Below are positions 8,423 to 51,215 of a stretch of 64,000 nt of DNA, piece after piece. Both the position numbers and the translations under genes were made by a program. Source of the stretch: an uncultured Pseudomonadota bacterium (GTDB lineage Bacteria > Pseudomonadota > Alphaproteobacteria > Rs-D84). Position 1 is the first letter of the stretch. Each line of letters opens with the position of its first letter. The notes under the pieces are model-generated. The model had not been told where the DNA came from and made no database searches. It was given only the letters and a program-made list of their open reading frames with translations. The stretch spans positions 121,617 to 185,616 of the forward strand of contig OOHL01000001.1 in the NCBI GenBank assembly GCA_900321105.1. Direction: 5' to 3'.

Positions 8423-9199
8423 ATGACAAAAACTAAAAAAGTTATAAAGCAAAAATTGCGTGCGGTTAAAAAAGACAAGCATGCATATGGTCTTTTAAGG
8501 GTTTTGCAAGCAACAGGACTTTTCCGTTGGGAACGCCCGTCCACGCGTGCAGAAGAAGCAATTAATATTTTAACACATGGTATTGGAATTGGTTTGGCAA
8601 TGGCTGCACTTTGTTTGTTGGTTGCTTTTGCAGTCGTTCATCATAATGTGTGGGCAACAGTTGCATGTTCTATATTTGGTGTCACAATGTTCACTTTGTA
8701 TTTTGGTTCAACAATGTGTCATGCAACAATAGGCGATAAAAGCGAATGCTTTTTCGAAGTATGGGACACTATCGCAATATATGCTTTGATAGCTGGAACA
8801 TATACACCATTTTTGTTGGTTAATTTGAATCGTTGTGGACATACTGCGTTGGGGTGGACTATATTTGGAATTTTGTGGGCGATTGTTATATTTGGTGCAG
8901 TTATGAAAATAGTTAACCCGCATAAGCAACCCAAATGGATGGTTGCTTTGTATCTTGTTATGGGTTGGGCGTTGATATGGATTTTGCCGGCGATGATACA
9001 CACAATTTCAGCACGCGGTATGTGGTTCATATTAGCGGGCGGATTGTCTTATTCTGTTGGTGTTATTTTCTATTTGTGGCGCAAATTAAAATTTGCACAT
9101 GCGTTTTGGCATCTGTTTGTTATCGGTGGCAGTGTGTGTTTCTTTTTCGCGGTGCTTTATGGTTCAATAATAGATTTTGCGGCAAAATGTATTGCATAA
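8423..9199 (+). CDS. hemolysin III / PAQR family membrane protein
   Basis: 7-TM profile with conserved His-rich motifs (HLFVIGG, HATIGD) typical of HlyIII family; start taken at MTKTKK. Confidence 0.65.
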   Translation: MTKTKKVIKQKLRAVKKDKHAYGLLRVLQATGLFRWERPSTRAEEAINILTHGIGIGLAMAALCLLVAFAVVHHNVWATVACSIFGVTMFTLYFGSTMCHATIGDKSECFFEVWDTIAIYALIAGTYTPFLLVNLNRCGHTALGWTIFGILWAIVIFGAVMKIVNPHKQPKWMVALYLVMGWALIWILPAMIHTISARGMWFILAGGLSYSVGVIFYLWRKLKFAHAFWHLFVIGGSVCFFFAVLYGSIIDFAAKCIA

Positions 9200-9200
9200 A

Positions 9201-9228
9201 AAAACACCGGCAAATGCCGGTGTTTTTA
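9201..9228. terminator. bidirectional rho-independent terminator
   Basis: caccggc-aaat-gccggtg hairpin flanked by A-run and T-run between convergent genes. Confidence 0.55.
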
Positions 9229-10557
9229 ATCATTATCAAAAGGATTTTCTGATTTTTGATATTCTATAATTATTGGCAAATGTTCCATCTTTAATGCCGT
9301 TGCGATACCGCGACGCAGATATCGTGTATAAGATTCAGGAATATCAGATGCGCCACCAACATTGATAGTAATTTTAATTGGATGGTGTCCGGTTTGACGT
9401 GCAAACTTAATTTTCATTGGACGTTTCAAACGCGACATAGGTGGTTGACGATCCGCTACTAATTTTTCAACGATACGATTTATTAAACTGGTCGGGGCAT
9501 CGGTATTTGATACGTCCCATTGTTCATAGATACGTTTAAAAAGATTTTGAACACCGGTTCCTTTTTCAGCGGATATTGCAAGTATAAGTGGTTTAATAAT
9601 TTGATGAAAAGAATTAGTAAATTGATGTTTTAATTTTAATAATTTTTCATCCCTTTCAACTTCTTCGACCAAATCCCATTTGTTAAGTGCGACACATAAA
9701 ATCTTGCCGGCATTATAAACACGTGCCGCGATGGACAGTGCCTGATTTTCAATGTTCTTGGTTGCATCGACTATCAAAATTACAATGTCAGATTTTTCAA
9801 TCGCATCCAAAGATTTTAATGCAGATAATGTTTCAACATCATCTGTGACCCCAGCCTTGCGACGAAGACCTGCGGTATCCATAATTACAATATCACGACC
9901 ATAAAAACGTGTTGGGATTTTTACAGTATCGCGTGTGATTCCCGGTGCATCCATAACGATTTGGCGATTTTCACCCAGGACGCGATTTACAAATGTGGAT
10001 TTCCCAACATTAGGTTGACCCAGAACTGCAACCTTTATTGTTTTGTCTTCGGTTTCGTTTTCTGTATTTTCGATTCCACCAATTTTATCAATGAATTCGT
10101 ATATTTCATCAAATCCGCGTTTGTGTTCTGCAGATATTAAAACAGGTTCGCCAAATCCCAGTTTATAGAAATCATGAATATCAGATAATCTTTTTGCAGA
10201 TTCAGATTTGTTTACCAAAAGCAGGGCAGGCGCTTTGCTTTTTTTATGAACCAGTTTTGCCCATTCTAAATCCATAGGGTTTAATCCAATGCGACCATCG
10301 ACAACAAATAAAATAGCATCAGCGTTTTCAATAGTTTTAATTGCCATATCTGTTGAATTTTGTGCAATACCAGATTTGGCATTTTCCAGACCCGCAGTAT
10401 CAAATACAGTCCATGGACGATTTGGAATTTTTCCAGAAATTGTATCGCGTGTGACACCTGGGCGATCGTGGACCAGTGCATCGCGTGAATTTGTTAATCC
10501 ATTAAAAAGCGTTGATTTGCCAGTGTTTGGTCGACCAACGATAACTATGTTTTTCAT
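9226..10557 (-). CDS. der: GTPase Der (EngA), two tandem GTP-binding domains
   Basis: GRPNTGKSTLFN and GQPNVGKSTFVN P-loops; start taken at MKNIVIVG (an alternative upstream Met is at 10569). Confidence 0.85.
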   Translation of the reverse strand: MKNIVIVGRPNTGKSTLFNGLTNSRDALVHDRPGVTRDTISGKIPNRPWTVFDTAGLENAKSGIAQNSTDMAIKTIENADAILFVVDGRIGLNPMDLEWAKLVHKKSKAPALLLVNKSESAKRLSDIHDFYKLGFGEPVLISAEHKRGFDEIYEFIDKIGGIENTENETEDKTIKVAVLGQPNVGKSTFVNRVLGENRQIVMDAPGITRDTVKIPTRFYGRDIVIMDTAGLRRKAGVTDDVETLSALKSLDAIEKSDIVILIVDATKNIENQALSIAARVYNAGKILCVALNKWDLVEEVERDEKLLKLKHQFTNSFHQIIKPLILAISAEKGTGVQNLFKRIYEQWDVSNTDAPTSLINRIVEKLVADRQPPMSRLKRPMKIKFARQTGHHPIKITINVGGASDIPESYTRYLRRGIATALKMEHLPIIIEYQKSENPFDND

Positions 10558-10625
10558 ATCTTTTTCCATTGATTTTTTATAATTATAAAGCAAAAATATA
10601 AATAATCAAACATTGGGGGTAAAAA

Positions 10626-11228
10626 ATGAAAGCAAAGAAAAAGAATTGGTTTTCGAAATTGTCTGATATATTCTTTCGTCCTAAATACTTTTTTTCACGC
10701 ATTGTCGCCGATGGTAAAATGGAAGACGCGATGTTAAAGGCTTTCCTTTGGGGGTTTGTTGGTGGAATATTGATTTTGATTATCAATTTATTTCGTGACG
10801 GACTGGCTGCATTTACAGTGTTTTCATTTTTCAAATCAATAATTATCTATCCGGTGTTGGCGGTTATGTTGCTGTTTATTACGGCGGGTTTGATGATGTT
10901 AGTGTCTGAAATCACAGGTGGTGAACGCGATTGGGAAATTGCAGTCAAAGGTATCGCATCAATTTTCTTTGTATATCCATTGGCGTTGTTGTTGAATGTG
11001 TTGGCATTTGATTGTCAATCGATTTGGGCGGTCAGTTTGCTGACAGATATATATATGGCATTTTTACTTTATAACATTGCGGTATATTGCATGCATGGCA
11101 AACGCATAAGTGTTTTATTTGTTGTAATGGTATGCTTCGTTTTGTTGGCGTGTTTGTATGTGTCAGATTACAAAACAGTTTGGTTTATGGTTAAAAACAT
11201 AGATGCAAATTCAATTTGTGTATTCTAG
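10626..11228 (+). CDS. Yip1-like multi-TM membrane protein
   Basis: 200 aa, 5 predicted TM segments. Confidence 0.4.
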   Translation: MKAKKKNWFSKLSDIFFRPKYFFSRIVADGKMEDAMLKAFLWGFVGGILILIINLFRDGLAAFTVFSFFKSIIIYPVLAVMLLFITAGLMMLVSEITGGERDWEIAVKGIASIFFVYPLALLLNVLAFDCQSIWAVSLLTDIYMAFLLYNIAVYCMHGKRISVLFVVMVCFVLLACLYVSDYKTVWFMVKNIDANSICVF

Positions 11229-11339
11229 GGAATATGAATACATACATATAGTTTTTATTATCTGTATTATATAAAATTAAGCACAGAATTTTTTTGTTTA
11301 CAATACAGCACAAGATGTTTTACACTGATTTTGAACCTG

Positions 11340-11530
11340 ATAATTGGGTTCGGGGCTGTCGAAAGCCTTGGTACATTCGGTGCGAAAGCATCGTTAAATG
11401 ATGTTGTGCGGTGTTTTTGCACCGATTCATATCCCCTGCGATTATGGTTGGGGGGCCGCGTACGTATATATAAATGTCGCGGAATCACCAATGTACTGAT
11501 TTTCGAACCCCCCGACCGCCCAATTGGTAG
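11340..11530. ncRNA. GC-rich structured noncoding element, candidate small RNA of unknown class
   Basis: about 50% GC in a roughly 33% GC genome; nested long-range pairings GGGTTCG/CGAACCC and GGTACATT(C)GGTG/CACCAATGTAC enclose three local hairpins; no plausible ORF. Confidence 0.25.
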
Positions 11531-11552
11531 CGTTTTTTATATTGGGGATAAA

Positions 11553-12500
11553 TTGTTTAAAATATTAAAGTATTTTTATTTAATTTATTTTGTATTTGTT
11601 ATCGCAAATACAGCGTATGCTGCGTCTTGCGCAACAGATTACGGTGTTGCGGTTCATCCTGTTGATCTGGATTTTAATATTAACAATCCTGAATATCCTG
11701 ATGAAATTACATTGACGGACAAAGGATTAAATACAGGTACATTTGTATTATCGGATGATGGAAATTGTTATTCGGGATATGAACCATACACGCGCGGTGG
11801 CGGTGATGTTTATCCATTAATAGAAGATTCAGATTTATGTGCGGATGGTTATTATCGTTCTGCTGGGAATTGTGTTGCGTTTACGGATGGTGGTTGTCCA
11901 ACAGGTCGTTATAATTCGGCGGTAAATATTGCGACATTTGTTGCATCAGAAGATGGTAATTGTTATTCCGGATTTGATGTTTATACGCGCAGCGGTGACG
12001 ATATATATCCATTGGTAGATTCGTCAAATTCGATATTGTGCCCGGCAGGTCAATATATGGCGAACGGAACATGTACGGCATATCCAATTGGCACATGTCC
12101 AGAAAATATGAAAAACACAACAACGAATTCTGCGACATGGTCGGCGATGACAAACGGTGTATGCCCATCTAATTATACAGAATATACAATATCAACCATT
12201 GAATACGCGTGTGACACGTATGTCAGTCACATAACATCCGAAACGCCGGCATGTTTGCTGATGTGTACAAATGGGCAAACTTTCTCGGAAGTAAATTCAT
12301 GTTCCGCGTTATGTGCCGATCATCATCAATTGATGACAGATACAGGTTTGGAATTCCCGATGTACACAACAAAACAAATCACGCCATCGTTGAATATACA
12401 GGTTGGGAATAATGTATGTTATGTGAATTTGGTCAGCGGTGCATCAGATGATGCGATAAATATAAAGTATAACAACACAACCTATCATACGGTGAAATAA
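11553..12500 (+). CDS. secreted Cys-rich protein with internal tandem repeats (TTG start)
   Basis: in-frame TTG preceded by GGGGA; signal peptide LFKILKYFYLIYFVFVIANTAYA; repeated DGNCYSGxxxYTRxGxDxYPL units; the annotated upstream extension covers the structured RNA-like region and is rejected. Confidence 0.5.
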   Translation: MFKILKYFYLIYFVFVIANTAYAASCATDYGVAVHPVDLDFNINNPEYPDEITLTDKGLNTGTFVLSDDGNCYSGYEPYTRGGGDVYPLIEDSDLCADGYYRSAGNCVAFTDGGCPTGRYNSAVNIATFVASEDGNCYSGFDVYTRSGDDIYPLVDSSNSILCPAGQYMANGTCTAYPIGTCPENMKNTTTNSATWSAMTNGVCPSNYTEYTISTIEYACDTYVSHITSETPACLLMCTNGQTFSEVNSCSALCADHHQLMTDTGLEFPMYTTKQITPSLNIQVGNNVCYVNLVSGASDDAINIKYNNTTYHTVK

Positions 12501-12557
12501 AGGATGAAAAAGGAAGAAGTAATTTTATAAAAAATTGCCCTGGTGGAAGAACCTTAT

Positions 12558-12735
12558 AAGTTCCGCCCCCGTGGGGGGGAGAATTAAAAGTTCTCCTCCT
12601 TTGGAGGAGTCCCCGCAGGGGGAGGTGGTAAGAGAGTGCAAATACTTGGAAAGACCACCCCGTCACTTCGTGCCACCCCTCCATAGAGGGGAACTAAGAA
12701 ATTCCGCCCCCGTGGGGGGGGAGAATATAAAAACT
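12558..12735. repeat. composite intergenic hairpin repeat, copy 1 (units A, B, C)
   Basis: ctcctcc-ttt-ggaggag, ccccc-gtg-ggggg and cccctc-cata-gagggg hairpins; unit C is repeated nearly verbatim at 13869..13947. Confidence 0.7.
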
Positions 12736-12742
12736 TTTATGC

Positions 12743-12783
12743 GGTGATGTTTTTTCCTCTTCCGTAAAAAAAATAACATCACC
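12743..12783 (+). terminator. long-loop hairpin (ggtgatgtt ... aacatcacc), possible terminator or processing site
   Basis: 9-bp perfect inverted repeat with a 23-nt loop. Confidence 0.35.
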
Positions 12784-12817
12784 GCGCCCGAGATAAAAAA
12801 CAAAGGAAGGAACAACA

Positions 12818-13226
12818 ATGAAACGCATAATGATATTTTTGATAATGATAATGGGAATATATTCAAACAAATACCGCGGTTGCGGTGTTAAATAAATTGG
12901 TTGGGGGCAGTGTTGATAATTCAACAACTGGACATCGATGGCAGGTTAACATGACGGATACCACCGCCGTCAAAGGCAAATCGTTATGTACAGGTATGCC
13001 TGGGGATTTTGCGGTTGTGAATACCGGTGTCGCCGATACAACCGATACCGGTTATCATTGCTATTGCAAAATGATGGCACCGGCAACATCGTATTGGGTA
13101 AATGCCAGTGGTTCATCGCCGTATGCGACTGAATCTGAATGTGAAAGCGGGTGTAACAGTGCATGTGCGAATTATATGGCAACAAATACAACATTTCGCA
13201 GCGCCGTATACGAAGCAGTGTGGTAA
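12818..13226 (+). pseudogene. frameshifted paralog of the DGR target gene
   Basis: a signal-peptide ORF MKRIMIFLIMIMG stops after 26 codons; the +1 frame (open from 12852) continues into a 113-aa ORF whose C-terminus (HCYCKMMAP..SYW...C.S.C..C.NY) parallels the active target (RYCWCKMTHP..SLW...C.S.C..C.NY). Confidence 0.5.
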
Positions 13227-13228
13227 GG

Positions 13229-13270
13229 GTTCTCCTCCTTCGGAGGAGTCCCCACAGGGTGAGAATAAAA
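13229..13270. repeat. composite hairpin repeat, short copy (unit B plus the tail of unit C)
   Basis: ctcctcc-ttc-ggaggag hairpin followed by gagaataaaa, as in the other copies. Confidence 0.6.
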
Positions 13271-13285
13271 CAAAAGGAAGAAAAA

Positions 13286-13756
13286 ATGAAAAAGATATGG
13301 ATATGTGTGTTAATGATAATGGTGTTTGTAATACCAGCGTTGGCTGTGTCGGTCTGTGCCAAAGACAGTGTTGTTACGGTTGTATTGGATCCATCAATCG
13401 GTGGTAATTCATATACATATAATAACAGCACAGGCGTGTGGAAAACGGTGTTTTCGTACGGCAATGTGTCGGGGGTCAGCACATGTTCAACCGTCGCCCC
13501 AACGGGTGGCAGGGGTTCAACCAATACCAGTGCAGGCACCCCATTGGATGCCGTTGCAGGCGATACATCGGGACGATATTGTTGGTGTAAAATGACACAC
13601 CCAATGTCTTCGCTTTGGGCGTTCCTCTACGACTACGGGTTTGCTTCGAATTGCGCTTCGAACTGTGCGACCATCTGCGGTAACTACGTCCGGAACGGCG
13701 GCGATTTGCGCGGCGGGCTGTTCGGTTCGGTCGCCGCTGCGAATGCAGCGTATTGA
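13286..13756 (+). CDS. DGR target (variable) protein: small secreted Cys-rich protein with the VR at its C-terminus
   Basis: AAGGAAG RBS; signal peptide MKKIWICVLMIMVFVIPALA; the last ~45 codons align with the TR except at TR adenines. Confidence 0.8.
   Translation: MKKIWICVLMIMVFVIPALAVSVCAKDSVVTVVLDPSIGGNSYTYNNSTGVWKTVFSYGNVSGVSTCSTVAPTGGRGSTNTSAGTPLDAVAGDTSGRYCWCKMTHPMSSLWAFLYDYGFASNCASNCATICGNYVRNGGDLRGGLFGSVAAANAAY
13605..13734 (+). repeat. DGR variable repeat (VR)
   Basis: 130 bp; 116/130 identical to the TR at 14065..14194; 13 of 14 mismatches lie at TR adenines, 1 is C to G. Confidence 0.85.
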
Positions 13757-13802
13757 TGTAACGCAAGGGCCGTGGCACGAACACGCGTGACACGATAATG
13801 CG

Positions 13803-13829
13803 CCCGACACCACGGCAAGTGGTGTCGGG
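13803..13829 (+). promoter_or_regulatory. GC-rich 10-bp stem-loop about 45 nt downstream of the VR (candidate DGR homing-enhancing hairpin or terminator)
   Basis: cccgacacca-cggcaag-tggtgtcggg perfect inverted repeat. Confidence 0.5.
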
Positions 13830-13837
13830 AATTAAAA

Positions 13838-13947
13838 TTTCTCCTCCTTTGGAGGAGTCCTTGGAAATACACCCCGTCACTTCGTGCCACCCCTTCATAG
13901 AGGGGAACTAAGAAGTTCCGCACCCGCGGGGGGGAGAACATAAAAAA
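13838..13947. repeat. composite intergenic hairpin repeat, copy 2 (units B and C)
   Basis: near-identical to 12591..12735. Confidence 0.7.
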
Positions 13948-14064
13948 CAGGAATAAAAACGAATCTTTGACAACAGGGTGTGATAAGTTGTATTGTTATG
14001 TTCAAGGGTATATCGCCGTATCGGTTGTGCGGTAGCTGATTCGTGGGGCGTGGCTGGGTTGTCG

Positions 14065-14194
14065 TGTCTTCGCTTTGGGCGTTCAACAACGACAACGGGA
14101 ATGCTTCGAATTGCGCTTCGAACTGTACGAACAACTGCGGTAACAACGTCCAGAACAACGCCGATTTGCGCGGCGGGCTGTTCGGTTCGGTCGC
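14065..14194 (+). repeat. DGR template repeat (TR), noncoding
   Basis: adenine-rich (about 28 A, many AAC/AAT triplets in the VR reading frame); matches the VR except at adenines. Confidence 0.85.
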
Positions 14195-14596
14195 TCCTTT
14201 GCAAGGTTATAACTTTGAATGCAAAGACAAAGTTTGGCTAACCTGTGGGACAAAGTGGTAAAACACTTTTCAGATGCGGATGTATCTGTTTATATATGCC
14301 TTGTCACATCAAAGGCGGGGCGGTATATCCTGTCCGAATACAAAGGACCAAACACAATACACAGGGGACATCTGGACTGGTAGGGTTTTTAACCTGAACG
14401 CCCTGGATGTCCAATACAAGTAGATTCGGGAACGAAGTGTATCGGAATCGTCACGGTATGCGCGCAGACACATAGTGTCGAGCGAATACGAGAATACATA
14501 ATTAGAAAAATCATAAAAACGGAGCTGTTTGATATGAGTTTTTATAGATTTTTATTATTGTGTATCGAGGAAAAAAATAAAACGAAGAGATAATAA

Positions 14597-14923
14597 ATGA
14601 CTTTAGATGAAATTAAAAAATTAGATGCAACATCTTGTCCAAGATTTTCGGCGTTCGCTAAAAATCAATTACCAATGCCGGGAAATAAAAAACGCCTTGA
14701 TGATATTTTAAACCGCGAAATTACTGTTATTGATTATCGAATTCGTAAATCTACGAAACGTGATGGCACCGAATGTTTACAAATGCAATTTTTACTGGGT
14801 GATGAAGTCTGTGTTGTTTTTACCGGCAGCAGCGTTTTAATCAACCAAATCAAAGAATCCAAAGATAATATTCCTTTTACTGCAACTTTGGTCAAAATGG
14901 ACAGATATTATTCTTTTTCTTGA
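14597..14923 (+). CDS. DGR accessory protein (not obviously Avd-like), 108 aa, ends 4 nt before the RT start
   Basis: position between TR and RT; beta-rich composition rather than a basic helical bundle. Confidence 0.45.
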   Translation: MTLDEIKKLDATSCPRFSAFAKNQLPMPGNKKRLDDILNREITVIDYRIRKSTKRDGTECLQMQFLLGDEVCVVFTGSSVLINQIKESKDNIPFTATLVKMDRYYSFS

Positions 14924-14927
14924 AACG

Positions 14928-15956
14928 ATGAAACGTTATAAAAATCTTTGGGATAAATTTATTTCTATGGAAAATCTGGAATTAGCAGCAAAAAAAGCAG
15001 TTAAATCCAAAAAAAATAAACCAGAAACAAAACTGTTTTTAGAACATAAAACAGAATTCTTGCTGAAATTACAACAAATGTTAATTGATGGGAATTTTAA
15101 TACATCCCAATATAAAGTTCGCAGAATTTTTGAACCAAAAGAAAGACTGATTTATATTTTACCCCTTTATCCAGATCATATTGTGCATCATGCGTTGATA
15201 AATATTCTGGGACCAATTTGGCAAAGTGGTTTTATTCGTGATTCTTATGCCTGTATCCCAGGCAGGGGATTGCATGCCGCATCAACCGCGATAATGAAAT
15301 TTATTCGTCGAAATAAATATGTTCTGCAATGCGATATTCGCAAATTTTATCCGTCCATAAATCATGATGTAATGTTTAATATAATAAAAAAGAAAATTGG
15401 CGATAAACGATTGTTGAATTTGTTACATAATATTATATGGTCATGTGGTGACGAAACAAATCTGCCAATTGGTAATTTAACATCACAATGGATGGGAAAT
15501 GTTTATATGAACGAATTGGATCATTTTGTAAAAGAACAATTACGATGCACGGACTATATTCGTTATTGTGATGATTTTTGTTTGTTCGCAAATGATAAAA
15601 AAACTTTGCATGAATATGAAAATAAATTGCATCAATTTGTGCGTGATAAATTAAAATTGGTATTTTCTAAATCTGTAATTCGAGTTGTTGCAAATGGGGT
15701 TGCGTTTATTGGTTATCGGCATTTCAAAAAATTTATATTGTTGCGAAGATATGGTGCTAAAAAAATGCGAAAACGTATTCTGCATATTGCAAAATACAGG
15801 GATAAATCTGATTTGGCAATTGGACAATTAGCGGCATATCATGGTTGGGCTAAATGGTGTTGCAGTCATAATTTTCTGACAGACGTTTGCAATCGTGCAA
15901 AAGAAATATCTGAAAAAACAGGTCAATTTATTTTTTGCAATTTGTTCAAGAATTAA
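14928..15956 (+). CDS. DGR-type reverse transcriptase
   Basis: RT motifs QCDIRKFYPSI, LPIGNLTSQ (the DGR-specific SQ motif) and YIRYCDDF (YxDD); 342 aa, typical DGR RT size. Confidence 0.85.
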   Translation: MKRYKNLWDKFISMENLELAAKKAVKSKKNKPETKLFLEHKTEFLLKLQQMLIDGNFNTSQYKVRRIFEPKERLIYILPLYPDHIVHHALINILGPIWQSGFIRDSYACIPGRGLHAASTAIMKFIRRNKYVLQCDIRKFYPSINHDVMFNIIKKKIGDKRLLNLLHNIIWSCGDETNLPIGNLTSQWMGNVYMNELDHFVKEQLRCTDYIRYCDDFCLFANDKKTLHEYENKLHQFVRDKLKLVFSKSVIRVVANGVAFIGYRHFKKFILLRRYGAKKMRKRILHIAKYRDKSDLAIGQLAAYHGWAKWCCSHNFLTDVCNRAKEISEKTGQFIFCNLFKN

Positions 15957-20019: not shown

Positions 20020-21212
20020 TTGTGTTCTCCTTTTTGTAATTTTATATTCTTGTTATCTATTATTTTTCCATTTATTTCACGATTGTAAATCAAATTATTT
20101 ACATTGTCGTTATTTTTATATCTTTCCACATAAATATATTTAGGCAATGTTGCCCATGTCCGAACGTCTGCATTTGAAGATGCAGCGGTATAAACAGATG
20201 ACATGATACCAAGCAGCGGGGCATAATCAGAACGAGAATTATAAAGCGTTGCCTGGGCAACCGTCTTTGAAACCGCAGATGCATATGAACGCAAAATTTC
20301 ATTTATTCTGTATTCGTTATATTCAGTCATAAACAGTGCATCAACATTTGCCAGCATTTCTGAATTTTGTGGGATTGTATAATTTGGCATTTGATATGCG
20401 TCTGCAAAAGTAAATTGAACAAGTCCGATATTAAATAAATAAATAGATGCATTTTCTTCGCGCAGACGTGGTGCAAAACCAGTTTCTATAAATTTCCAGG
20501 TCATGTTTGTTGGGCGAATTCTTTTTTGTGCCAATTCCAAATCTTGTTTAATGTATTTATTATCCGGCATCATACCATTGGCGCGCTTAAGGTATAAAAT
20601 TGCATTATCAAAATCGCCATCGTTTAAAAAGTATATTCCGGACAAGTACATCAAAGCAGGGTTCATAATATCGCGAAATGCCAACCAATCATTTGAATTT
20701 TTATCAATAAATTCTGCGATTTGTGAATCTTTGATAATTTCTTTTTTATTATTTTCAATTAACTTTTTATATTCAGACGACATATTTTTTTGTCGTTCAT
20801 ACGATTGATTTATAACAACACGCGCATTTGCAAAATCTTGCATTGCCAATAAATCCAATATCTGATAATAAGATACAAAAAGCGAATCCATCATATATGG
20901 TTTATATGAATTAACGCTTTGTCCAAATAATAACCCGGTTGCTTCGCGGGAAACAGATGACGATGTTTCAGATAAATTTCTTTTATTAAATTCTTCAAAT
21001 ATTTTATCGCTTTGTTCAAAATCGTTCGCATGGAAAAGGGCGGTTCCATTTATCAATAAATCCAGATTATTTTGTTCATCGATATTTTTATCTGTTGTTG
21101 TTTCAAAATTAGAATTTGCAAAATTGTTTTGAACATCATTCAAATGTGATTGCATTGTTGTTGCGCAACCACACAAGAAAAGATATGTCATAAAATAAAG
21201 AATCTTTCGCAT
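20016..21212 (-). CDS. hypothetical lipoprotein (398 aa)
   Basis: lipobox FLCGCA; its stop overlaps the lpoB start (ATGA). Confidence 0.45.
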   Translation of the reverse strand: MRKILYFMTYLFLCGCATTMQSHLNDVQNNFANSNFETTTDKNIDEQNNLDLLINGTALFHANDFEQSDKIFEEFNKRNLSETSSSVSREATGLLFGQSVNSYKPYMMDSLFVSYYQILDLLAMQDFANARVVINQSYERQKNMSSEYKKLIENNKKEIIKDSQIAEFIDKNSNDWLAFRDIMNPALMYLSGIYFLNDGDFDNAILYLKRANGMMPDNKYIKQDLELAQKRIRPTNMTWKFIETGFAPRLREENASIYLFNIGLVQFTFADAYQMPNYTIPQNSEMLANVDALFMTEYNEYRINEILRSYASAVSKTVAQATLYNSRSDYAPLLGIMSSVYTAASSNADVRTWATLPKYIYVERYKNNDNVNNLIYNREINGKIIDNKNIKLQKGEHK

Positions 21213-21227
21213 AAGTGTTATTATAAA

Positions 21228-23501
21228 TTAATTATGCAATGGTTCCAATACTTTTATTTCATTGGTGTTTGGATTCAAAACGCGTGGCACACCATCGTAT
21301 CCCATAATTGCATGATGCGATGGGATTAAAAATTCAGGTAATGGGGATGCTTCGCCCATCAAGACTTTTTCATGCAATTTCTTTTGAACAGGGGTTTTAT
21401 TAAGGAAATGGAATTCTTGGTCTGCTTCGATTGGACGATGATACCATCCTTGATAAATAACCAATTGTTTGCCTGGTTTTAATCTCATAATATCGTATTC
21501 GCTGTAAAGAGGTTCTTCTTTTGGTGTTTCGACTTCTTTGCCGTCTTTATCGGTTTCGACTTTCTTAGTCTTTTTCTGACCAATCATATCTGAAAATCTG
21601 CGTGCAGTATCCGGGTCGTTTTGACGCATAACAACTTTTGCCGCAGTTGTTGAAATAATTGTTGATGCGGCATCATTTCCATATTTTTCACTTATCTGGT
21701 GAATATCTTGACCGATGATTAAATAAGATACTTTTTGTCCGCGTCCCAAATCTGGTCCCTGAATAACAGCATCCAATTTTTGCATTTTTGGCATTTCATC
21801 CAAAACAAACAACACTGGACAAGGTCCCATTTTTACACCGTCAACAACCTGGTCCACATTGTGTGCCAATAAATAATTAGACATCAATTCAATGAATATC
21901 GCGGTTATTGGATTCAAAGCCTGGGCATCAACCATATTAATAGAAAGATATACCGTCACAGGTTTAATTTTTCCATCCCTTGGATCCATCATGCCACGCA
22001 TATCCTTGAAATGAAAATCAGAATGTGATGTTCTGTTTCTAACTGCAGCATTACGGAATATTGCCAGGCCTTCCATCATGGTGGAAAGAATTGATCCGCG
22101 TTCTTTATCAGGTGTATTTGCCAATTGCGTTAATTCAGAAACAGCACGATTTGCATACGCGTAACGGCGTGCTTCTTCAACCGCATCCAAAAGCAAATTT
22201 TTCATAGGATCTGCCATCATAACCATTTGATCGCCTTGCTTGCGACGTTCTTCCATTTCTTCGGCGATGGCAACCTGGGAAGATGTTAACCAATCAAGAA
22301 TCATGGAAAATGAAGCCTCGCGGCCACGCCATGAATCTGGGATGTGTGCCCATGTTCCAACATGGACATAATTGTTAATATTTAATTCGCCCTTATTCAA
22401 AATAGAATAGGCGGCATACGCGTTCGGATCGTTCATCATTGATAAATAATAGTCGCCCAACACAGCTGCATCGTCGCTGTTAAATGTCCCGTTGTTTATA
22501 CGTGCATAGAAATAGTCATCGGCGCGTGCGCGTTCAACCTTGGATACAATAAAGTTAATAAGTCCAGATAATCCGGCGCGACCAGTATTTGCCCAGTGCG
22601 GATCCGCAGTTGAAGATTTGCTGTCTGGGACCAAAACCTTGGCCATGGAATCGATATACAAATCACGTTGTTCTGGATTGTATGGAATATGGTCTGGCGA
22701 TAATGGATTCCAAGATGGATAATATATACCACGTGCTGGATCGTCCTGACCTGCCCAATTCATAATGAACACTGGTCCAATCGTTGAACGATAACCAGAT
22801 GTGTCTTGTTTTAATTCTGGTTTCGGGTCGTTAATAATCATTGAAACATTATCACAATCTAAAATTGTCGGTAAAACAACACCTTGGGTTTTACCGGTTC
22901 CTGGGGGTGCAACGCACAATGTTGATAACGCTTCATCCATCATAAGTGGTGTTTGTTTTCCTTTGTATTTGAAATAACCCAATACCATCATAAAACCATG
23001 GAAAAGACCTTCCTTGTTTTTGGGGTCTTGACCCATTTTTACGATATCTTCGGCGGTTGCCTTGCGCGCAGATTTTTCATCGTATTTATCTTTGCTGTGT
23101 GGATTGAATTCAGATTTAAATGTGGAATCGGCCAAGAAGTAATATCCCAAAATCGGTAATAATGGTGTAATTGATGCAAAATCTGGATGGTTTAATGTGC
23201 GAATTATCCAATAAGGAACTTCTGCAATTGCGGAAAGCCCAAACGTCATAAACAAATTTTTTATATAAATCAGTGTCCAATGTTCACTGGCCGGACCCCA
23301 TCCATATCGCCATATATGTTCAACCGCAAAAGACATACCAAACATTAATGCGCATATCAACCAAATACCAACATCCCAACGCAATTCCCAGAATTTGCGC
23401 GCCATTGGTGTTTGTTCGTGTTCCTTGTATGCGCTGGATTCAAAAATTTTTAATCCTTTGCCGGAACCACTGGATGATAAAATGTTGAACTTTATTGCCA
23501 T
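21228..23501 (-). CDS. virD4: type IV secretion coupling protein (VirD4/TraG family) with an N-terminal membrane extension
   Basis: Walker A VAPPGTGKTQGVVLPTIL; Walker B VLFVLDEMPKMQKL; N-terminal TM helices. Confidence 0.75.
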   Translation of the reverse strand: MAIKFNILSSSGSGKGLKIFESSAYKEHEQTPMARKFWELRWDVGIWLICALMFGMSFAVEHIWRYGWGPASEHWTLIYIKNLFMTFGLSAIAEVPYWIIRTLNHPDFASITPLLPILGYYFLADSTFKSEFNPHSKDKYDEKSARKATAEDIVKMGQDPKNKEGLFHGFMMVLGYFKYKGKQTPLMMDEALSTLCVAPPGTGKTQGVVLPTILDCDNVSMIINDPKPELKQDTSGYRSTIGPVFIMNWAGQDDPARGIYYPSWNPLSPDHIPYNPEQRDLYIDSMAKVLVPDSKSSTADPHWANTGRAGLSGLINFIVSKVERARADDYFYARINNGTFNSDDAAVLGDYYLSMMNDPNAYAAYSILNKGELNINNYVHVGTWAHIPDSWRGREASFSMILDWLTSSQVAIAEEMEERRKQGDQMVMMADPMKNLLLDAVEEARRYAYANRAVSELTQLANTPDKERGSILSTMMEGLAIFRNAAVRNRTSHSDFHFKDMRGMMDPRDGKIKPVTVYLSINMVDAQALNPITAIFIELMSNYLLAHNVDQVVDGVKMGPCPVLFVLDEMPKMQKLDAVIQGPDLGRGQKVSYLIIGQDIHQISEKYGNDAASTIISTTAAKVVMRQNDPDTARRFSDMIGQKKTKKVETDKDGKEVETPKEEPLYSEYDIMRLKPGKQLVIYQGWYHRPIEADQEFHFLNKTPVQKKLHEKVLMGEASPLPEFLIPSHHAIMGYDGVPRVLNPNTNEIKVLEPLHN

Positions 23502-40343: not shown

Positions 40344-40419
40344 GGATGCATAGCTCAGTTGGTAGAGCAACTGACTCTTAATCAGTGGGTCCAGGGTTCG
40401 AGTCCCTGTGCGTCCACCA
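40344..40419 (+). tRNA. tRNA-Lys (anticodon CUU), with encoded CCA
   Basis: cloverleaf with 7-bp acceptor stem (one G-U pair); anticodon loop CUCUUAA; T-loop GGTTCGAGTCC. Confidence 0.9.
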
Positions 40420-40428
40420 AAATAAACA

Positions 40429-40452
40429 AACCACCAACGGTGGTTTTTTTAT
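40429..40452 (+). terminator. rho-independent terminator after tRNA-Lys
   Basis: aaccacc-aac-ggtggtt hairpin followed by a T-run. Confidence 0.5.
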
Positions 40453-40562
40453 TTTGTCGCACAAGCGGACGAGAATCCCTTTGTTCGACTATGAGTAAGC
40501 GAAAACGAGCGCAGAGAAGTTTGAGCGCTAACGAATGCGGCGCAGGCATTTTATGCCGAGCC

Positions 40563-40578
40563 AGTCCCTGTGTGTCCA
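40563..40578 (+). repeat. direct repeat of the tRNA-Lys 3' end (15/16 nt), att-like
   Basis: agtccctgtgtgtcca versus tRNA agtccctgtgcgtcca at 40401..40416. Confidence 0.55.
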
Positions 40579-40697
40579 GATTTTTTATTGTTGTAGAAAA
40601 TTTTTGTAACTTATTGATATTAACATTTTTTTTTGCGCTTGTATGGTCCCATCGTATATGACATAATATAAAAGAAAGTAATACCAAGGAGAATGAT

Positions 40698-41849
40698 ATG
40701 AAAAAACTTACAATATTAACATCAGTTTTAGCATTAGCTGCGTGCGGTGGTGGTTCTGGTGGTGGCGCTGGCGTTGCACCAATGGCAAATGTAACACCTA
40801 TGAATTTAGGATCACAGTATTCAAGGATTGCATGTAATTCAGATAGAAGCGAATGCAGAGGTGTGACAGTAGATTCAAATGGTAACACAACATTGTCTGA
40901 AGCAAGATTCGCCTCTAAAAGACTATCCAGAGCAGCATCAACACATGGTAATATTGCGGTTGGAAACGAACAATGGGATTTATTCTATGCAGATGATATT
41001 GATATGAATGTTATTTATTCTCCAGGGGAAGATAAAGTCGCGACACAAACATTTATTCTTGATTCCAAAGGAAATATAACAGGATTAAAATGGTCTGGGG
41101 ATGAAGAAGTTGCAGAGTTTGTACCAGGAGTTGTGTTATCTGGTATGAAATATATCGGTGATAATAAATTTAGTTTAAAATCTTCTGAATCAGACGGTAC
41201 ACTTGATTTTGAAAACTATGGTGATTTAAATTTTGCTAATTTTGGTGTTGTAAAAATACAAAATATGAAATGGACTGGTCACGATGTTGGCGAGGGTAAT
41301 ATGGATATACCTTTTGCTGGTGGATATAATGTTTTAAAACAAAACCCAACTGAAAATTTGGCGGATCAAACCATTACATATACAGGAACAGCGCGAGGTA
41401 TGGTTGAATATGCTGGTACAAAGACAAGTGATGCAGCACAAGATTATTTGAACATAACCGCAAATAATGCAACATTAACTTTGGATACAACTGGTGCAAA
41501 TGTAGTAGAAACTTTTGCTGGTAATTTTGTAAAAACAGAAAATCCATCTAAACACTGGTACACGATAACAGCAATAAACGATAATGGTGCTATAAATTAC
41601 GTATTTACTGGTAATAATGAAACAGAAAGCGATAGATTTGATATTGCGGGTACAAATCATACTGTTCAAATGTTTAAGACAGGGTATTACAGTGATAAAA
41701 AAGATACTGCGTCAGAAGCATCCGGTTTGTTCCAATATCAGGAAATTATAGACCCTGCATTAAAAGAACATCCAGGGGATGAATCACCTATGATACAAGA
41801 AAACAATAAAACCATATATTTTGGATTTGGTGGAAAGGTGACAGAATAA
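40698..41849 (+). CDS. surface-lipoprotein (SLP)-like lipoprotein 1
   Basis: signal peptide MKKLTILTSVLALAACGGGSGGG, a Neisseria/Pasteurellaceae-style SLP lipobox with a Gly/Ser linker; paralog of 41956..43125. Confidence 0.45.
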   Translation: MKKLTILTSVLALAACGGGSGGGAGVAPMANVTPMNLGSQYSRIACNSDRSECRGVTVDSNGNTTLSEARFASKRLSRAASTHGNIAVGNEQWDLFYADDIDMNVIYSPGEDKVATQTFILDSKGNITGLKWSGDEEVAEFVPGVVLSGMKYIGDNKFSLKSSESDGTLDFENYGDLNFANFGVVKIQNMKWTGHDVGEGNMDIPFAGGYNVLKQNPTENLADQTITYTGTARGMVEYAGTKTSDAAQDYLNITANNATLTLDTTGANVVETFAGNFVKTENPSKHWYTITAINDNGAINYVFTGNNETESDRFDIAGTNHTVQMFKTGYYSDKKDTASEASGLFQYQEIIDPALKEHPGDESPMIQENNKTIYFGFGGKVTE

Positions 41850-41867
41850 TCGTAAAACTTACAACAC

Positions 41868-41899
41868 GGATCCCCTGTCACAACAGGGGATTTTTTTTA
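41868..41899 (+). terminator. rho-independent terminator between the two SLP-like genes
   Basis: gatcccctg-tcacaa-caggggat hairpin followed by a T-run. Confidence 0.5.
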
Positions 41900-41955
41900 T
41901 GGTAATGTTCCTAGTATTGTACTAGGATATATTTATCGAAAGAAAAGGGGGCGTT

Positions 41956-43125
41956 ATGAAAAAACTTATAATATTAACATCTGTATTGGCATTGGCTGCA
42001 TGTGGCGGCGGTTCCGGTGGTCCAGACGAAAGATTTGTAGTAAGATCATCTTCCCCATACGCATATGTAACACAAAGCGCAGCAGAATCGAACAAAGATA
42101 TCACGTCAATTGCATCTGAAGTTCGCAAATGTGTTGATGATAATTGCGCAAAGAATACACACAATGGCAATGGTACGAATTTGCCAACGGTGACACCACG
42201 TATAAGCTCATACAGTGATAATACAGGTAATTGGAATGTGTACAATTTGTCAGATGTTAAATTTAACATGGCAGACGAGGGGTTGGAACCAGGCGACGAA
42301 AGTTTTAATTTTGTTGTCGATGACAAAGAAGGCAGTGCAACACGTGGCAAAATCATTGGTATTGATATGGGATTGCGAGATTCAGAAACACATCCACAAC
42401 ATGGTAATACAAATGTCAAGGCGGATTTTGTGCGTAACGATGATAACAGTTTTTCTGGGTATGTAAAACACAATGGTGAACATGCTGATGCAAATGGATG
42501 GACATATGTGGAAAAGGCGAATTTTGAATCATTGGGCAAAGGTTTGACTAATAAACTTACATATTCTGATTTTGGGCAATTGGATTTAAGTGAAGCGAAA
42601 GAATACTGGAAACCTGTATTTATTGGCGGTTATGATGTGAAGAAAATATCCCCAGCGGATGTTAATGTTAAAAAAACATCAAAAGATGACGTGTTTTCTG
42701 GAAAGGTAGTTGGTTATGTTGCGTCAAATGATGGACATGGTAATGTTGAAACTTTCGCATTAGAATCTAACAACGCAACATTGACTTTTGATAAAGACAA
42801 TAACAAAACAACAACATTGAATGCAAGTTTTACAGACTGGTACAATATGGTGTACACAGAAAATGACACAACAAAATCTGTTGTATTGTCTGGGTATAAT
42901 GGTGACCATCAGATGTTAACAACACCAGAAGATGGTAAAGTGACGATTGAAAATACCGGGATATTATCAGATATACGATATTTTGGTGATAATAATGTTC
43001 CAATTGAATCTGTCGGTTTAATTCAAATTCGTGATTGTGGAGGAACCGAATGTCCAGAACACTTTGACAGCGAGGAAGTTCGTGTTGATGTTGGTTTTGG
43101 TGTCAGCAGAAAGATTACTGATTGA
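41956..43125 (+). CDS. surface-lipoprotein (SLP)-like lipoprotein 2
   Basis: signal peptide MKKLIILTSVLALAACGGGSGG; its stop overlaps the downstream Slam-like gene start. Confidence 0.45.
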   Translation: MKKLIILTSVLALAACGGGSGGPDERFVVRSSSPYAYVTQSAAESNKDITSIASEVRKCVDDNCAKNTHNGNGTNLPTVTPRISSYSDNTGNWNVYNLSDVKFNMADEGLEPGDESFNFVVDDKEGSATRGKIIGIDMGLRDSETHPQHGNTNVKADFVRNDDNSFSGYVKHNGEHADANGWTYVEKANFESLGKGLTNKLTYSDFGQLDLSEAKEYWKPVFIGGYDVKKISPADVNVKKTSKDDVFSGKVVGYVASNDGHGNVETFALESNNATLTFDKDNNKTTTLNASFTDWYNMVYTENDTTKSVVLSGYNGDHQMLTTPEDGKVTIENTGILSDIRYFGDNNVPIESVGLIQIRDCGGTECPEHFDSEEVRVDVGFGVSRKITD

Positions 43126-44477
43126 AAAAAATATTACTGATTTTATGCGTTGTGATTTCGCCTATGTTTTCATTGGCTGAACCTGATGTGAAACAAAATG
43201 GCAAAACAACAGAAATCACAATGTCTGCGCTGGATGCTGTAAAGCTGGCTGGCAATTTAATAGACAAGGGTGATTACGAGCATGCAAGTCAAATTCTTAC
43301 CATGATGCCAAAGACAGACAGTTTGCCTGTGGAAATAGAAAGATGGTTTCTTTTGGCACAAATGGAACAAAGAAAAGGTAATTACGAAGAAGCCATTAAA
43401 ATTTATCGTAAAATTCTTGATGATCAACCAGATTTGGCACGTATTCGTTTTGAATTGGCATTATGTTATATGAAAATGGGTCGTTGGTATCGTGCCGATT
43501 ATCATTTGCGTCTTGCCATGGCTGGAAAAGATTTACCAGATAATGTCAAACAAATGATGGCGTATTATCGTTATATTGTTCGTCAAAATAAACGTTGGAA
43601 TGTTTGGTTTAATTTTGGTGCGGCACCTGATTCTAATATAAACAATGGTAATGGTGGTGAAGAGTGTGTCGTAAATGGTTGGGGACGTTTTTGTCGTAAT
43701 CTTAAAGAACCAGAATCTGTGGTTGGTGCAAATTTAACATTGGGTGGAAATTACGAATTTGTATTATCTGATCATTGGCGTTGGAAAAGTGATGCAAACA
43801 TTTATTCCAATACTTATAACAACCACGATTATGATGATTTGTATTTGTCTTCATCAACCGGACCTCGATATATTTGGTCACGGGGGGACGTTTGGTTGGC
43901 GGCGATAGGCGCACGTCGTTGGTATGGTTGGGAAAAGTATAATTATTCATATGGTGCAAAACTGGACACGAATTATGACTTTACACGTAAATTGTCAGGT
44001 GGACTGACTTTGCGTTATATGGAAAATAAATATGATGAATATGGACCATTTTTAAATGGGCAAACATATTCAACAAGTTTCAGTTTGTATTATTCATTTA
44101 ACGCACGTTTGTATACGGTATTAAGAACTGGTTTGATACGTGAAGATACTGTTGTTCCAACTTATTCATATTGGCAGCCAAATTTTGCCATAGGATTGGG
44201 GATAGAATTGCCTGCTGGATTTCATGTATATGCAGAACCTTCGTTCTATATGTCTAAATATGATGATGCACAATGGGTTGTAAAAGATTTTGATTACACC
44301 CAAATCACAGAACGCGATTTTGTTCAAAGATATGCATTGTCTGTTTCTAATAATAAATTTGATGTGTGGGGTTTTGTGCCAACGTTTACAATCTCTTATA
44401 TGCGCCGCGATTCAAATATCTGGCAAAGGGAATTTGATAAAACAACACTTGAATTTACAATGCGGCAAAGATTTTAA
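43122..44477 (+). CDS. Slam-like (DUF560) outer-membrane protein: N-terminal TPR domain plus C-terminal beta-barrel
   Basis: signal peptide; TPR-like GNYEEAIKIYRKILDDQPDLARIRFELALCYMKMGRW; Trp/Tyr-rich barrel ending EFTMRQRF; lies immediately downstream of the two SLP-like genes. Confidence 0.45.
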   Translation: MKKILLILCVVISPMFSLAEPDVKQNGKTTEITMSALDAVKLAGNLIDKGDYEHASQILTMMPKTDSLPVEIERWFLLAQMEQRKGNYEEAIKIYRKILDDQPDLARIRFELALCYMKMGRWYRADYHLRLAMAGKDLPDNVKQMMAYYRYIVRQNKRWNVWFNFGAAPDSNINNGNGGEECVVNGWGRFCRNLKEPESVVGANLTLGGNYEFVLSDHWRWKSDANIYSNTYNNHDYDDLYLSSSTGPRYIWSRGDVWLAAIGARRWYGWEKYNYSYGAKLDTNYDFTRKLSGGLTLRYMENKYDEYGPFLNGQTYSTSFSLYYSFNARLYTVLRTGLIREDTVVPTYSYWQPNFAIGLGIELPAGFHVYAEPSFYMSKYDDAQWVVKDFDYTQITERDFVQRYALSVSNNKFDVWGFVPTFTISYMRRDSNIWQREFDKTTLEFTMRQRF

Positions 44478-51139: not shown

Positions 51140-51215
51140 GGCTAGATAGCTCAGTTGGTAGAGCAAGGGACTGAAAATCCCTGTGTCAGTAGTTCGATTC
51201 TACTTCTAGCCACCA
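51140..51215 (+). tRNA. tRNA-Phe (anticodon GAA), with encoded CCA
   Basis: cloverleaf; acceptor GGCTAGA/TCTAGCC; anticodon loop CUGAAAA; T-loop AGTTCGATTCT. Confidence 0.9.

Follow-up and report, generated by a model that had tools for sequence, protein, structure and literature searches.

In tRNA-associated genomic islands, with their attL and attR sites, and in the integrase-less elements known as CIMEs, a direct repeat of the tRNA 3' end brackets DNA lying behind an intact tRNA gene, and such units can accrete in tandem. Another kind of insertion is represented by the REP/REPIN sequences, the Rickettsia palindromic elements, the MITEs and the IS200/IS605-derived PATEs. These are short, GC-rich, hairpin-forming, multicopy and intergenic, and are sometimes nested or arranged in tandem; REP elements carry a GTAG motif, and the ends of IS200/IS605 follow a guide/cleavage-site logic. 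In the tRNA-like domain of tmRNA, the t-elements of plant mitochondria and the viral tRNA-like structures, the 3' strand of a closing stem is an acceptor/T-stem strand ending in CCA, within a cloverleaf-like shape made of a stem and three arms. The spacer RNA of diversity-generating retroelements (DGRs), elements with a template repeat and avd and reverse transcriptase (RT) genes, was the last of the known systems compared.

The element described here, termed X, resembles each of these in part. An intact unit consists of the tRNA, its terminator, an antisense copy of the tRNA 3' end (positions ~76 to 49), a GAGAAC...GTTCGA hairpin, arm A, arm B, a sense copy of the tRNA from A58 to CCA, and the terminator once more. 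Unlike attL/attR insertions and CIMEs, the insert measures only ~130-180 bp, contains no integrase, has a repeat that extends into the terminator of its own tRNA, includes an antisense copy and has its core at 12 or more tRNA species; the true islands at tRNA-Lys(CTT) use a different, longer att. As in the REP-like elements, GTAG precedes a hairpin, namely arm A. X differs from this whole group, the Rickettsia elements included, in that its flanks are copies of the 3' end of the neighbouring tRNA in both orientations, that it has no fixed target site, target duplication or identified transposase, and that its orthologues evolve by compensatory change. Compared with the tRNA-like structures, X is without a T-arm, D-arm and anticodon arm and is not called by ARAGORN or Rfam. 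Its CCA is often paired to a TGG in the leader, and its 5' strand is an antisense copy and not a true acceptor 5' strand. A second copy, X2, does lie between the template repeat and the avd-like and RT genes of a DGR, but orthologous DGRs lack the X core, so that it is an insertion and not a part of the DGR. The literature search found no prior description of X, and we know of no other described element in which the cognate tRNA 3' end, in both its orientations, encloses a conserved core. X is a previously undescribed element, related to known tRNA-associated insertions and structured repeats.

The window, i.e., the whole 64-kb stretch of DNA that was analysed, comes from a 251-kb metagenome contig (ENA ERZ27279860) of an uncultured alphaproteobacterium of the Candidatus Enterousia / Rs-D84 group, gut bacteria whose members have genomes of less than ~1 Mb (PMC12306168). 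Upstream of its tRNA-Lys(CTT) gene are an NlpD-like LysM/M23 peptidase gene and a 191-aa orphan ORF. X follows the tRNA, and downstream of it are the genes for two lipoproteins, Slam (PF04575), TatD and ThiF. The fragment at 40456-40578 has partly decayed; it belongs to a family of structured elements that occurs lineage-wide and is attached to tRNA genes (Table 1).

Table 1. Features of the tRNA-Lys(CTT) locus and of the DGR locus in the 64-kb window, with the basis of each assignment.
Feature	Position	Strand	Basis or remark
tRNA-Lys(CTT), intact	40344..40419	+	ARAGORN; Rfam RF00005, 73.3 bits
Intrinsic terminator of tRNA-Lys: 8-bp stem (40428-40446), 3-nt loop, T-run	40428..40453	+	Terminator scan
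IR-L, degenerate antisense copy of tRNA-Lys 3' end	40456..40470	+	Alignments of leader with reverse complement, many tRNA types
Hairpin H1 remnant (GAGAATCCC tttg TTCGAC)	40471..40489	+	Alignment A2; constant GAGAAC / GTTCGA motif
Arm A, the long hairpin H2 (variant type A, that of the window's clade)	40490..40536	+	Alignment A2
Arm B: P3 (GGC/GCC), internal loop, H3 (GGCAT/ATGCC)	40539..40562	+	Alignment A2
Tail, sense copy of tRNA-Lys positions 58-73, 3' strand of closing stem S1	40563..40578	+	Repeat search, orthologue comparison, MFE fold
Remnant of second terminator copy (T-run 40581-40586)	40579..40589	+	Comparison with relatives
X2, tRNA-less core: hairpin, arm A, arm B, extra arm C	14364..14571	+	Covariance model R1
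DGR target gene, Cys-rich, secreted	~13286-13756
DGR variable repeat (VR)	13605-13734
DGR template repeat (TR)	14065-14194		13/14 TR-to-VR differences at template adenines
avd-like ORF, 108 aa	14597-14923		No Pfam match
Reverse transcriptase	14928-15956		PF00078

A sequence-only reading of the window had pointed to a duplication of the tRNA end, and its positions were confirmed. The template is tRNA-Lys A58-A73 (AGTCCCTGTGCGTCCA, 40401-40416), the last 16 nt before CCA, which recurs 146 nt downstream as AGTCCCTGTGTGTCCA with one mismatch (C to T). At up to three mismatches the 16-mer has three matches in the 64-kb window, against 0.19 expected from shuffles, and only the one at 40563-40578 is close. 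The same reading was right about the base composition, as the ~110 nt between the terminator and the copy have a GC content of 48-50% against ~37% for the genome, and also about the integrase, none of which was called between ~5 and 52 kb of the window. In the MFE fold, 40456-40470 pairs with the 16-mer copy. This antisense copy, IR-L, reads GTCGCACAAGCGGAC against an ideal GACGCACAGGGAC and forms the 5' strand of the closing stem S1. The end of arm B abuts the start of the 16-mer exactly, and the last base of P3 is the one directly in front of it.

Compared with its relatives, the window copy is incomplete. Its H1 is without the GGG strand and the apical hairpin that are both present in them. 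In intact relatives, moreover, the repeat is longer and comprises the 16-mer, then CCA and then the entire terminator, whereas in the window CCA and the second terminator hairpin are deleted and the T-run remains. Helix P-a appears to be lost as well, besides the apex of H1, CCA and the second terminator, and the fold is weak; this copy is probably inactive. ARAGORN reported no tRNA or tmRNA within X, and no family of Rfam 15 matched X at permissive thresholds. RF04321 gave only weak partial matches (10-18 bits), which cover the T-arm of the true tRNA. On these grounds a tmRNA or permuted tmRNA was rejected.

The locus was compared among 80 loci of different species obtained through an NlpD scan (individual metagenome loci are numbered L002, L004 and so on). 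The tRNA-Lys(CTT) gene adjoins NlpD in ~70 of the 80, in either orientation, and an X homologue comes directly after the tRNA and its terminator in 27 of the 80. Every orthologous tRNA-Lys locus has an equivalent terminator hairpin, of different sequence. Every X closes with a copy of the 16-mer of its own genome's tRNA, and the tail changes together with the host tRNA (...CTGTGCGTCCA, ...CTGCGCGTCCA, ...CCCATGCGCCCA). In most genomes CCA comes next after the tail, and then the same terminator once more; the terminator itself varies among genomes. X is inherited at a syntenic locus across species. Two units or partial duplications occur in L027, L045 and L047, and in L045 the two units are different X subtypes in tandem. 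Many species have the tRNA and terminator only and no X at the locus, and the units are truncated in L070, L073, L074 and L077; taken together, these indicate that X is dispensable. Among species, the tRNA-Lys module, which comprises a promoter, the tRNA and its terminator and may or may not include X, was also seen in either orientation with respect to conserved flanks (L006 7745-7977 and ~20 other NlpD loci). No flanking inverted repeats that could account for these inversions were identified. In L006, where the entire tRNA and X module is inverted, X and Slam are both present with no lipoprotein genes between them.

X is not confined to tRNA-Lys. A core-pattern scan of metagenome contigs, mostly from rumen samples, returned at least 120 loci; more than 120 copies of the core are present in rumen metagenome contigs and two in the window. 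The core lies 70-110 nt behind the tRNA genes Arg(acg), Gln(ctg), Gly(ccc), Lys(ctt), Lys(ttt), Met(cat), Pro(cgg), Ser(gct, gga, tga), Tyr(gta) and Val(tac), and at all of these the tail equals the last 19 nt of the local tRNA (A58 to CCA) with 0-1 mismatch. The tail matched more loosely at Gln(ttg), Pro(ggg), Ser(cga) and Arg(ccg). Units are often arranged in tandem (L244, L245, L297). The element is not present at every tRNA gene of the window's genome, since the tRNA-Phe(GAA) of the window (51140-51215) has no R1 match behind it.

The leader fills the stretch from the terminator to H1 and corresponds, in degenerate form, to the reverse complement of the 3' end of its own tRNA, from the complement of CCA (TGG) to about position 49. 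For many tRNA types, the best alignment of the leader is with the reverse complement of its own tRNA end. The Arg leader, for example, reads TGGCTTGCCC-CAAGGATGAGAACCC against an ideal TGGCGCGCCCAGAAGGATTCGAACCC, and the Val leader reads GGATATTTAGAGACGAGAAC against GGATGTTAAGAGACTCGAAC. One change is constant, TC to GA in the T-loop complement, and it puts two G·A pairs in tandem at the foot of H1. The binding of leaders is stronger with their own tail (-14.9 kcal/mol) than with foreign tails (-11.6 kcal/mol), although many leaders are worn. In many copies the closing stem is degenerate, and no clear wobble bias shows among its substitutions (18 vs 12), which suggests weak selection on it. 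Core identity was 82% by tRNA type and 78% by contig, a weak result from few typed pairs.

Several other readings of these units were tried and rejected. A pairing of GGAC with the terminal GTCC was given up, as the leader pairs in nested fashion with the whole tail. An aminoacylatable tRNA mimic does not fit, as the leader lacks the covariation of an acceptor 5' strand and CCA is in many cases paired. Similarly, an integron-like cassette array was rejected for the multi-copy contigs, in which there is no regular gene-plus-X pattern. In a BLAST search of the fragment against phage and plasmid collections, the terminator alone matched, and two specific exact patterns had no match in viral contigs. 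With a looser pattern, GGACGAGAAN{3,33}GGTTCGA, the viral contigs yielded at least 120 matches, taken as mostly chance; this pattern also brought in L187, which encodes homologues of the RT and avd-like proteins of the window.

The fold of X was evaluated in two alignments. The first, A2, holds 15 orthologous tRNA-Lys-linked copies and supports four helical elements, namely H1, arm A (H2), the 3-bp P3 and H3. In it, 94.4% of the cells are paired, against 19-37% with the partners slid; 13 of the 27 pairs are altered on both sides, and there are 56 compensatory cells against 17 in shuffles. Arm A (A2 pairs 54-65 with 79-92) is 97-98% paired and accounts for six pairs altered on both sides, and P3 and H3 are paired in 100% of cases, with the pair types GG/CC, CA/TG, CG/CG and CC/GG. 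The second alignment contains 117 distinct metagenome sequences aligned by the covariance model R1; it gives 94.7% paired cells against at most 45% when slid, and 465 compensatory cells against 108 when shuffled, but it is fitted to the model, a bias in favour of structure. A further helix, P-a (4 bp), closes arm A in the versions CAAC/GTTG, AAAC/GTTT, AACC/GGTT and ATAC/GTAT, and is 96% paired as against 75% in shuffles. The compensatory changes between orthologues of a single syntenic locus speak for a fold under selection.

The pairs also carry information on the strand. Family-wide, G·U occurs 266 times and A·C 30 times, and this excess places the structure on the tRNA strand; it does not strictly prove an RNA, because G·T pairs are also tolerated in single-stranded DNA hairpins. 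By MFE, intact members form a four-way junction in which three arms meet the closing stem (z = -4.5 in L303, z = -4.0 in L218). The window copy has the same topology with z = -1.1.

The second core of the window, X2, has no tRNA beside it and is matched by R1 at 14389-14501 with 38.8 bits (E 3.5e-8). It belongs to a complete diversity-generating retroelement (13286-15956), in which it sits between the template repeat and the avd-like ORF; the latter follows ~25 nt, and the RT gene some 360 nt, downstream of the core. L083 and L318 also have homologous avd-RT pairs, in both cases next to tRNA genes. The DGRs of these two loci have the template repeat and the spacer hairpins in common with the window but not the X core, which indicates that the core was added in the window DGR; the idea that X genuinely belongs to the DGR RNA was rejected on this ground. 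The closest relatives of X2 lie behind tRNA-Gln, tRNA-Pro and tRNA-Tyr genes, with their tails retained. X2 and the tRNA-Lys copy, X1, are of different subtypes, and copies group by locus and not by genome. The arm C of X2 defines a subtype of its own (L268, L242, L227, L311, L238 and window 14485-14571); it is AT-rich, measures ~90 nt (AATACGAGAATACAC...GTGTATCGAGG) and has arm B on one side and a tRNA tail, here shortened, on the other.

Other tRNA-less cores occur after unrelated GC hairpins, after another core, or ahead of duplicated GNAT genes. In L226 (4054-5706), L250, L251 and L292, cores with a truncated tRNA-Tyr-like tail (AATCCACC...) were seen ~50-60 nt upstream of tandem-duplicated GNAT acetyltransferase genes, as if the core had been duplicated along with the gene. 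The region of the window around the DGR target genes (12540-13940), AT-rich and intergenic or variable, contains several families of short GC-rich hairpin repeats, such as AAGTTCCGCCCCCGTGGGGGGGAGAA, GTTCTCCTCCTTTGGAGGAGTCC and CACCCCGTCACTTCGTGCCACCCCTCCATAGAGGGGAAC. Hairpins resembling these directly precede tRNA-less X cores in metagenome contigs.

On the whole, the reading that we favour, with a probability of about one half, is that X is a structured element, most likely an RNA, predicted from its excess of G·U over A·C pairs to be read in the direction of the tRNA. The antisense and sense copies of the tRNA end pair and close a four-way junction, and the 16-mer, a regular part of the unit, is the 3' strand of the closing stem. 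The conserved arms may be kept through recognition by a trans-acting partner, either a protein or an RNA-processing enzyme. The direct repeats of tRNA end and terminator, 45 bp or longer, could be kept alike by gene conversion, and recombination between them would permit either the expansion of tandem arrays or the clean deletion of a unit. A strong terminator separates the tRNA from X and no convincing promoter for X was found, so its transcription would need read-through or an unrecognised start. The degenerate closing stem of many copies and the dispensability of X also speak against this reading. It is tentatively proposed, as less likely than not, that Rs-D84 / Enterousia genomes may keep a set of tRNA-specific four-way-junction RNAs behind many of their tRNA genes, each having the antisense and sense tRNA 3' ends around a two-arm core.

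A rather unlikely but serious alternative is that X is a small non-autonomous mobile DNA, similar to a MITE, REPIN or PATE, whose enzyme is encoded elsewhere. Its hairpins would act as single-stranded DNA, it would land by or in hairpins, including the tRNA T-arm, and the tRNA flanks would be by-products. The occurrence of a GC-rich core at many loci of an AT-rich genome fits this, as do the tandem arrays, the differences in presence and absence, the many decayed copies, and the cores that have no tRNA parts and follow unrelated GC hairpins or another core, or lie in a DGR spacer but not in its orthologues. Both ends of the core also pair with internal bases beside the feet of hairpins (P-a, P3), in the manner of the IS200/IS605 ends, and the GTAG in front of arm A recalls the REP elements. 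Yet no transposase, integrase or Y1/HUH gene was seen near any copy, in the 64-kb window or in the 15-kb loci, and the left edge of the core has neither a constant target sequence nor a target-site duplication. The left flanks vary (TTCGA, GTCCA, GGGAG, GAGGG), and an IS200/IS605-type insertion 3' of TTCGA was rejected on account of this variation outside the tRNA context. Moreover, the inverted repeats derive from the local tRNA and differ by locus, and the grouping of copies by locus, with X1 and X2 as different subtypes, also speaks against mobility. Syntenic orthologues keep their helices by compensatory change, which immobile relics would not do. Very different is the proposal that X arose by reverse transcription, the antisense copy being a cDNA-like copy of the mature tRNA 3' end that was spread by an RT such as that of the window. 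Reverse transcriptases can stop on modified tRNAs at about position 49 and at A58, and these are where the antisense copy ends and the sense copy begins; the window also encodes an RT, with X2 close to its avd-like partner. This RT, however, belongs to a typical DGR, as judged by the adenine bias of its template-to-variable changes (Table 1). Related DGRs are without the X core, and no adenine-specific changes are seen in tails or leaders, which leaves this origin improbable.

The sequence-only reading had taken the duplicated tRNA end for the footprint of a site-specific integration. In the form weighed here, the tail would be the attR-type repeat of a tyrosine-integrase insertion, and X either the remainder of an island or a mini-element mobilisable in cis, for which an integrase would act in trans. 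A part of this holds. The repeat is not due to chance, and it starts in the T-loop, a known crossover sublocation for some integrase families, and bounds a unit added behind the tRNA. The tandem of two subtypes in L045 is as in accretion at att sites, and tRNA-Lys(CTT) is a real integration site in the clade. L038 has in this gene a 5.5-kb island (8502-14107) with a P4-type integrase (PF00589, PF13356), flanked by a repeat of 45 nt that extends from the anticodon loop to CCA; the island was also seen to encode a UDG-like and a MORN-repeat protein, together with a weak Rep-like ORF. L019 has a P4-type integrase island of the same kind with an attR of 47 nt (~10533-10760). What is not supported is the view of the unit as an island scar. 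The att of these true islands covers 45-47 nt from the anticodon loop, against 16-19 nt from A58 in the X repeat, and in L019 the terminator, X and tail lie downstream of attR, hence in the chromosome and outside the island. No X locus has an integrase between its repeats; L038 and L019 were the only loci in which integrases were found. In each genome the repeat continues into the terminator of that genome, which a travelling attP could not match, and an antisense copy is present in addition. The same core with the local tRNA 3' end is found behind 12 or more other tRNA genes, a pattern that a decayed island would not produce. Finally, a scar would drift, whereas the covarying helices are kept at a syntenic locus across species over deep divergence. 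The reading as an integrase scar is therefore largely refuted and the least probable of all; both it and the reverse-transcription origin are weaker than a structured RNA or a mobile DNA.

The same applies to the island that had been supposed to lie downstream with the SLP-Slam genes. No third copy of the 16-mer that could delimit a larger island is present in the 64-kb window, and X and Slam occur independently among the orthologous tRNA-Lys loci. In L014, X and the 16-mer are present, TatD comes directly after them and Slam gave no match, which goes against the supposed link. In L017, L027, L030 and L033, X is present and no Slam homologue was detected before TatD, with 1.7-3 kb of uncharacterised sequence in between; conversely, Slam is present and X absent in L008, L009 and L018. 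An outcome of this kind was what the sequence-only reading itself had named as its refutation. X is independent both of SLP/Slam and of the integrases that use tRNA-Lys(CTT). Short repeats of tRNA 3' ends in genomes of the Rs-D84 type should not be taken as island boundaries.

These genomes are smaller than 1 Mb, and yet many folded elements of 130-180 bp are kept behind single-copy tRNA genes. If the X elements are RNAs, they point to an unrecognised layer of tRNA-linked biology. The proposed set of tRNA-specific junction RNAs, if true, would be an undescribed RNA class linked to the biology of tRNA 3' ends, e.g., their processing, the detection of tRNA ends after cleavage, or a defence against toxins or elements that target tRNAs, and would imply that the local tRNA end is copied in both orientations in some undescribed manner. 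As mobile DNA, the X elements would represent a new, integrase-free way to colonise tRNA genes.

A few further observations were made around these loci. The lipoprotein/Slam cassette between tRNA-Lys and TatD (window 40698-44477) differs by species, with two lipoproteins and Slam, Slam alone, or none (L006-L086), and no flanking repeats were seen around it. The first 67 nt of the two lipoprotein genes of the window are 85% identical to each other (40697-40763 vs 41955-42021). In L002 and L004, both from sample ERZ1029110, one assembly ends 7 nt past the tRNA CCA, and the other has a different, GC-richer NlpD 3' end joined directly to the same tRNA, X and lipoprotein sequence without the 191-aa ORF. 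This join is either a chimera formed via the shared tRNA or a second strain. The window also encodes, at ~21200-23500 on the minus strand, a type IV secretion coupling protein of the VirD4/TraG type (PF02534, PF10412, PF12696), in what is a very small genome.
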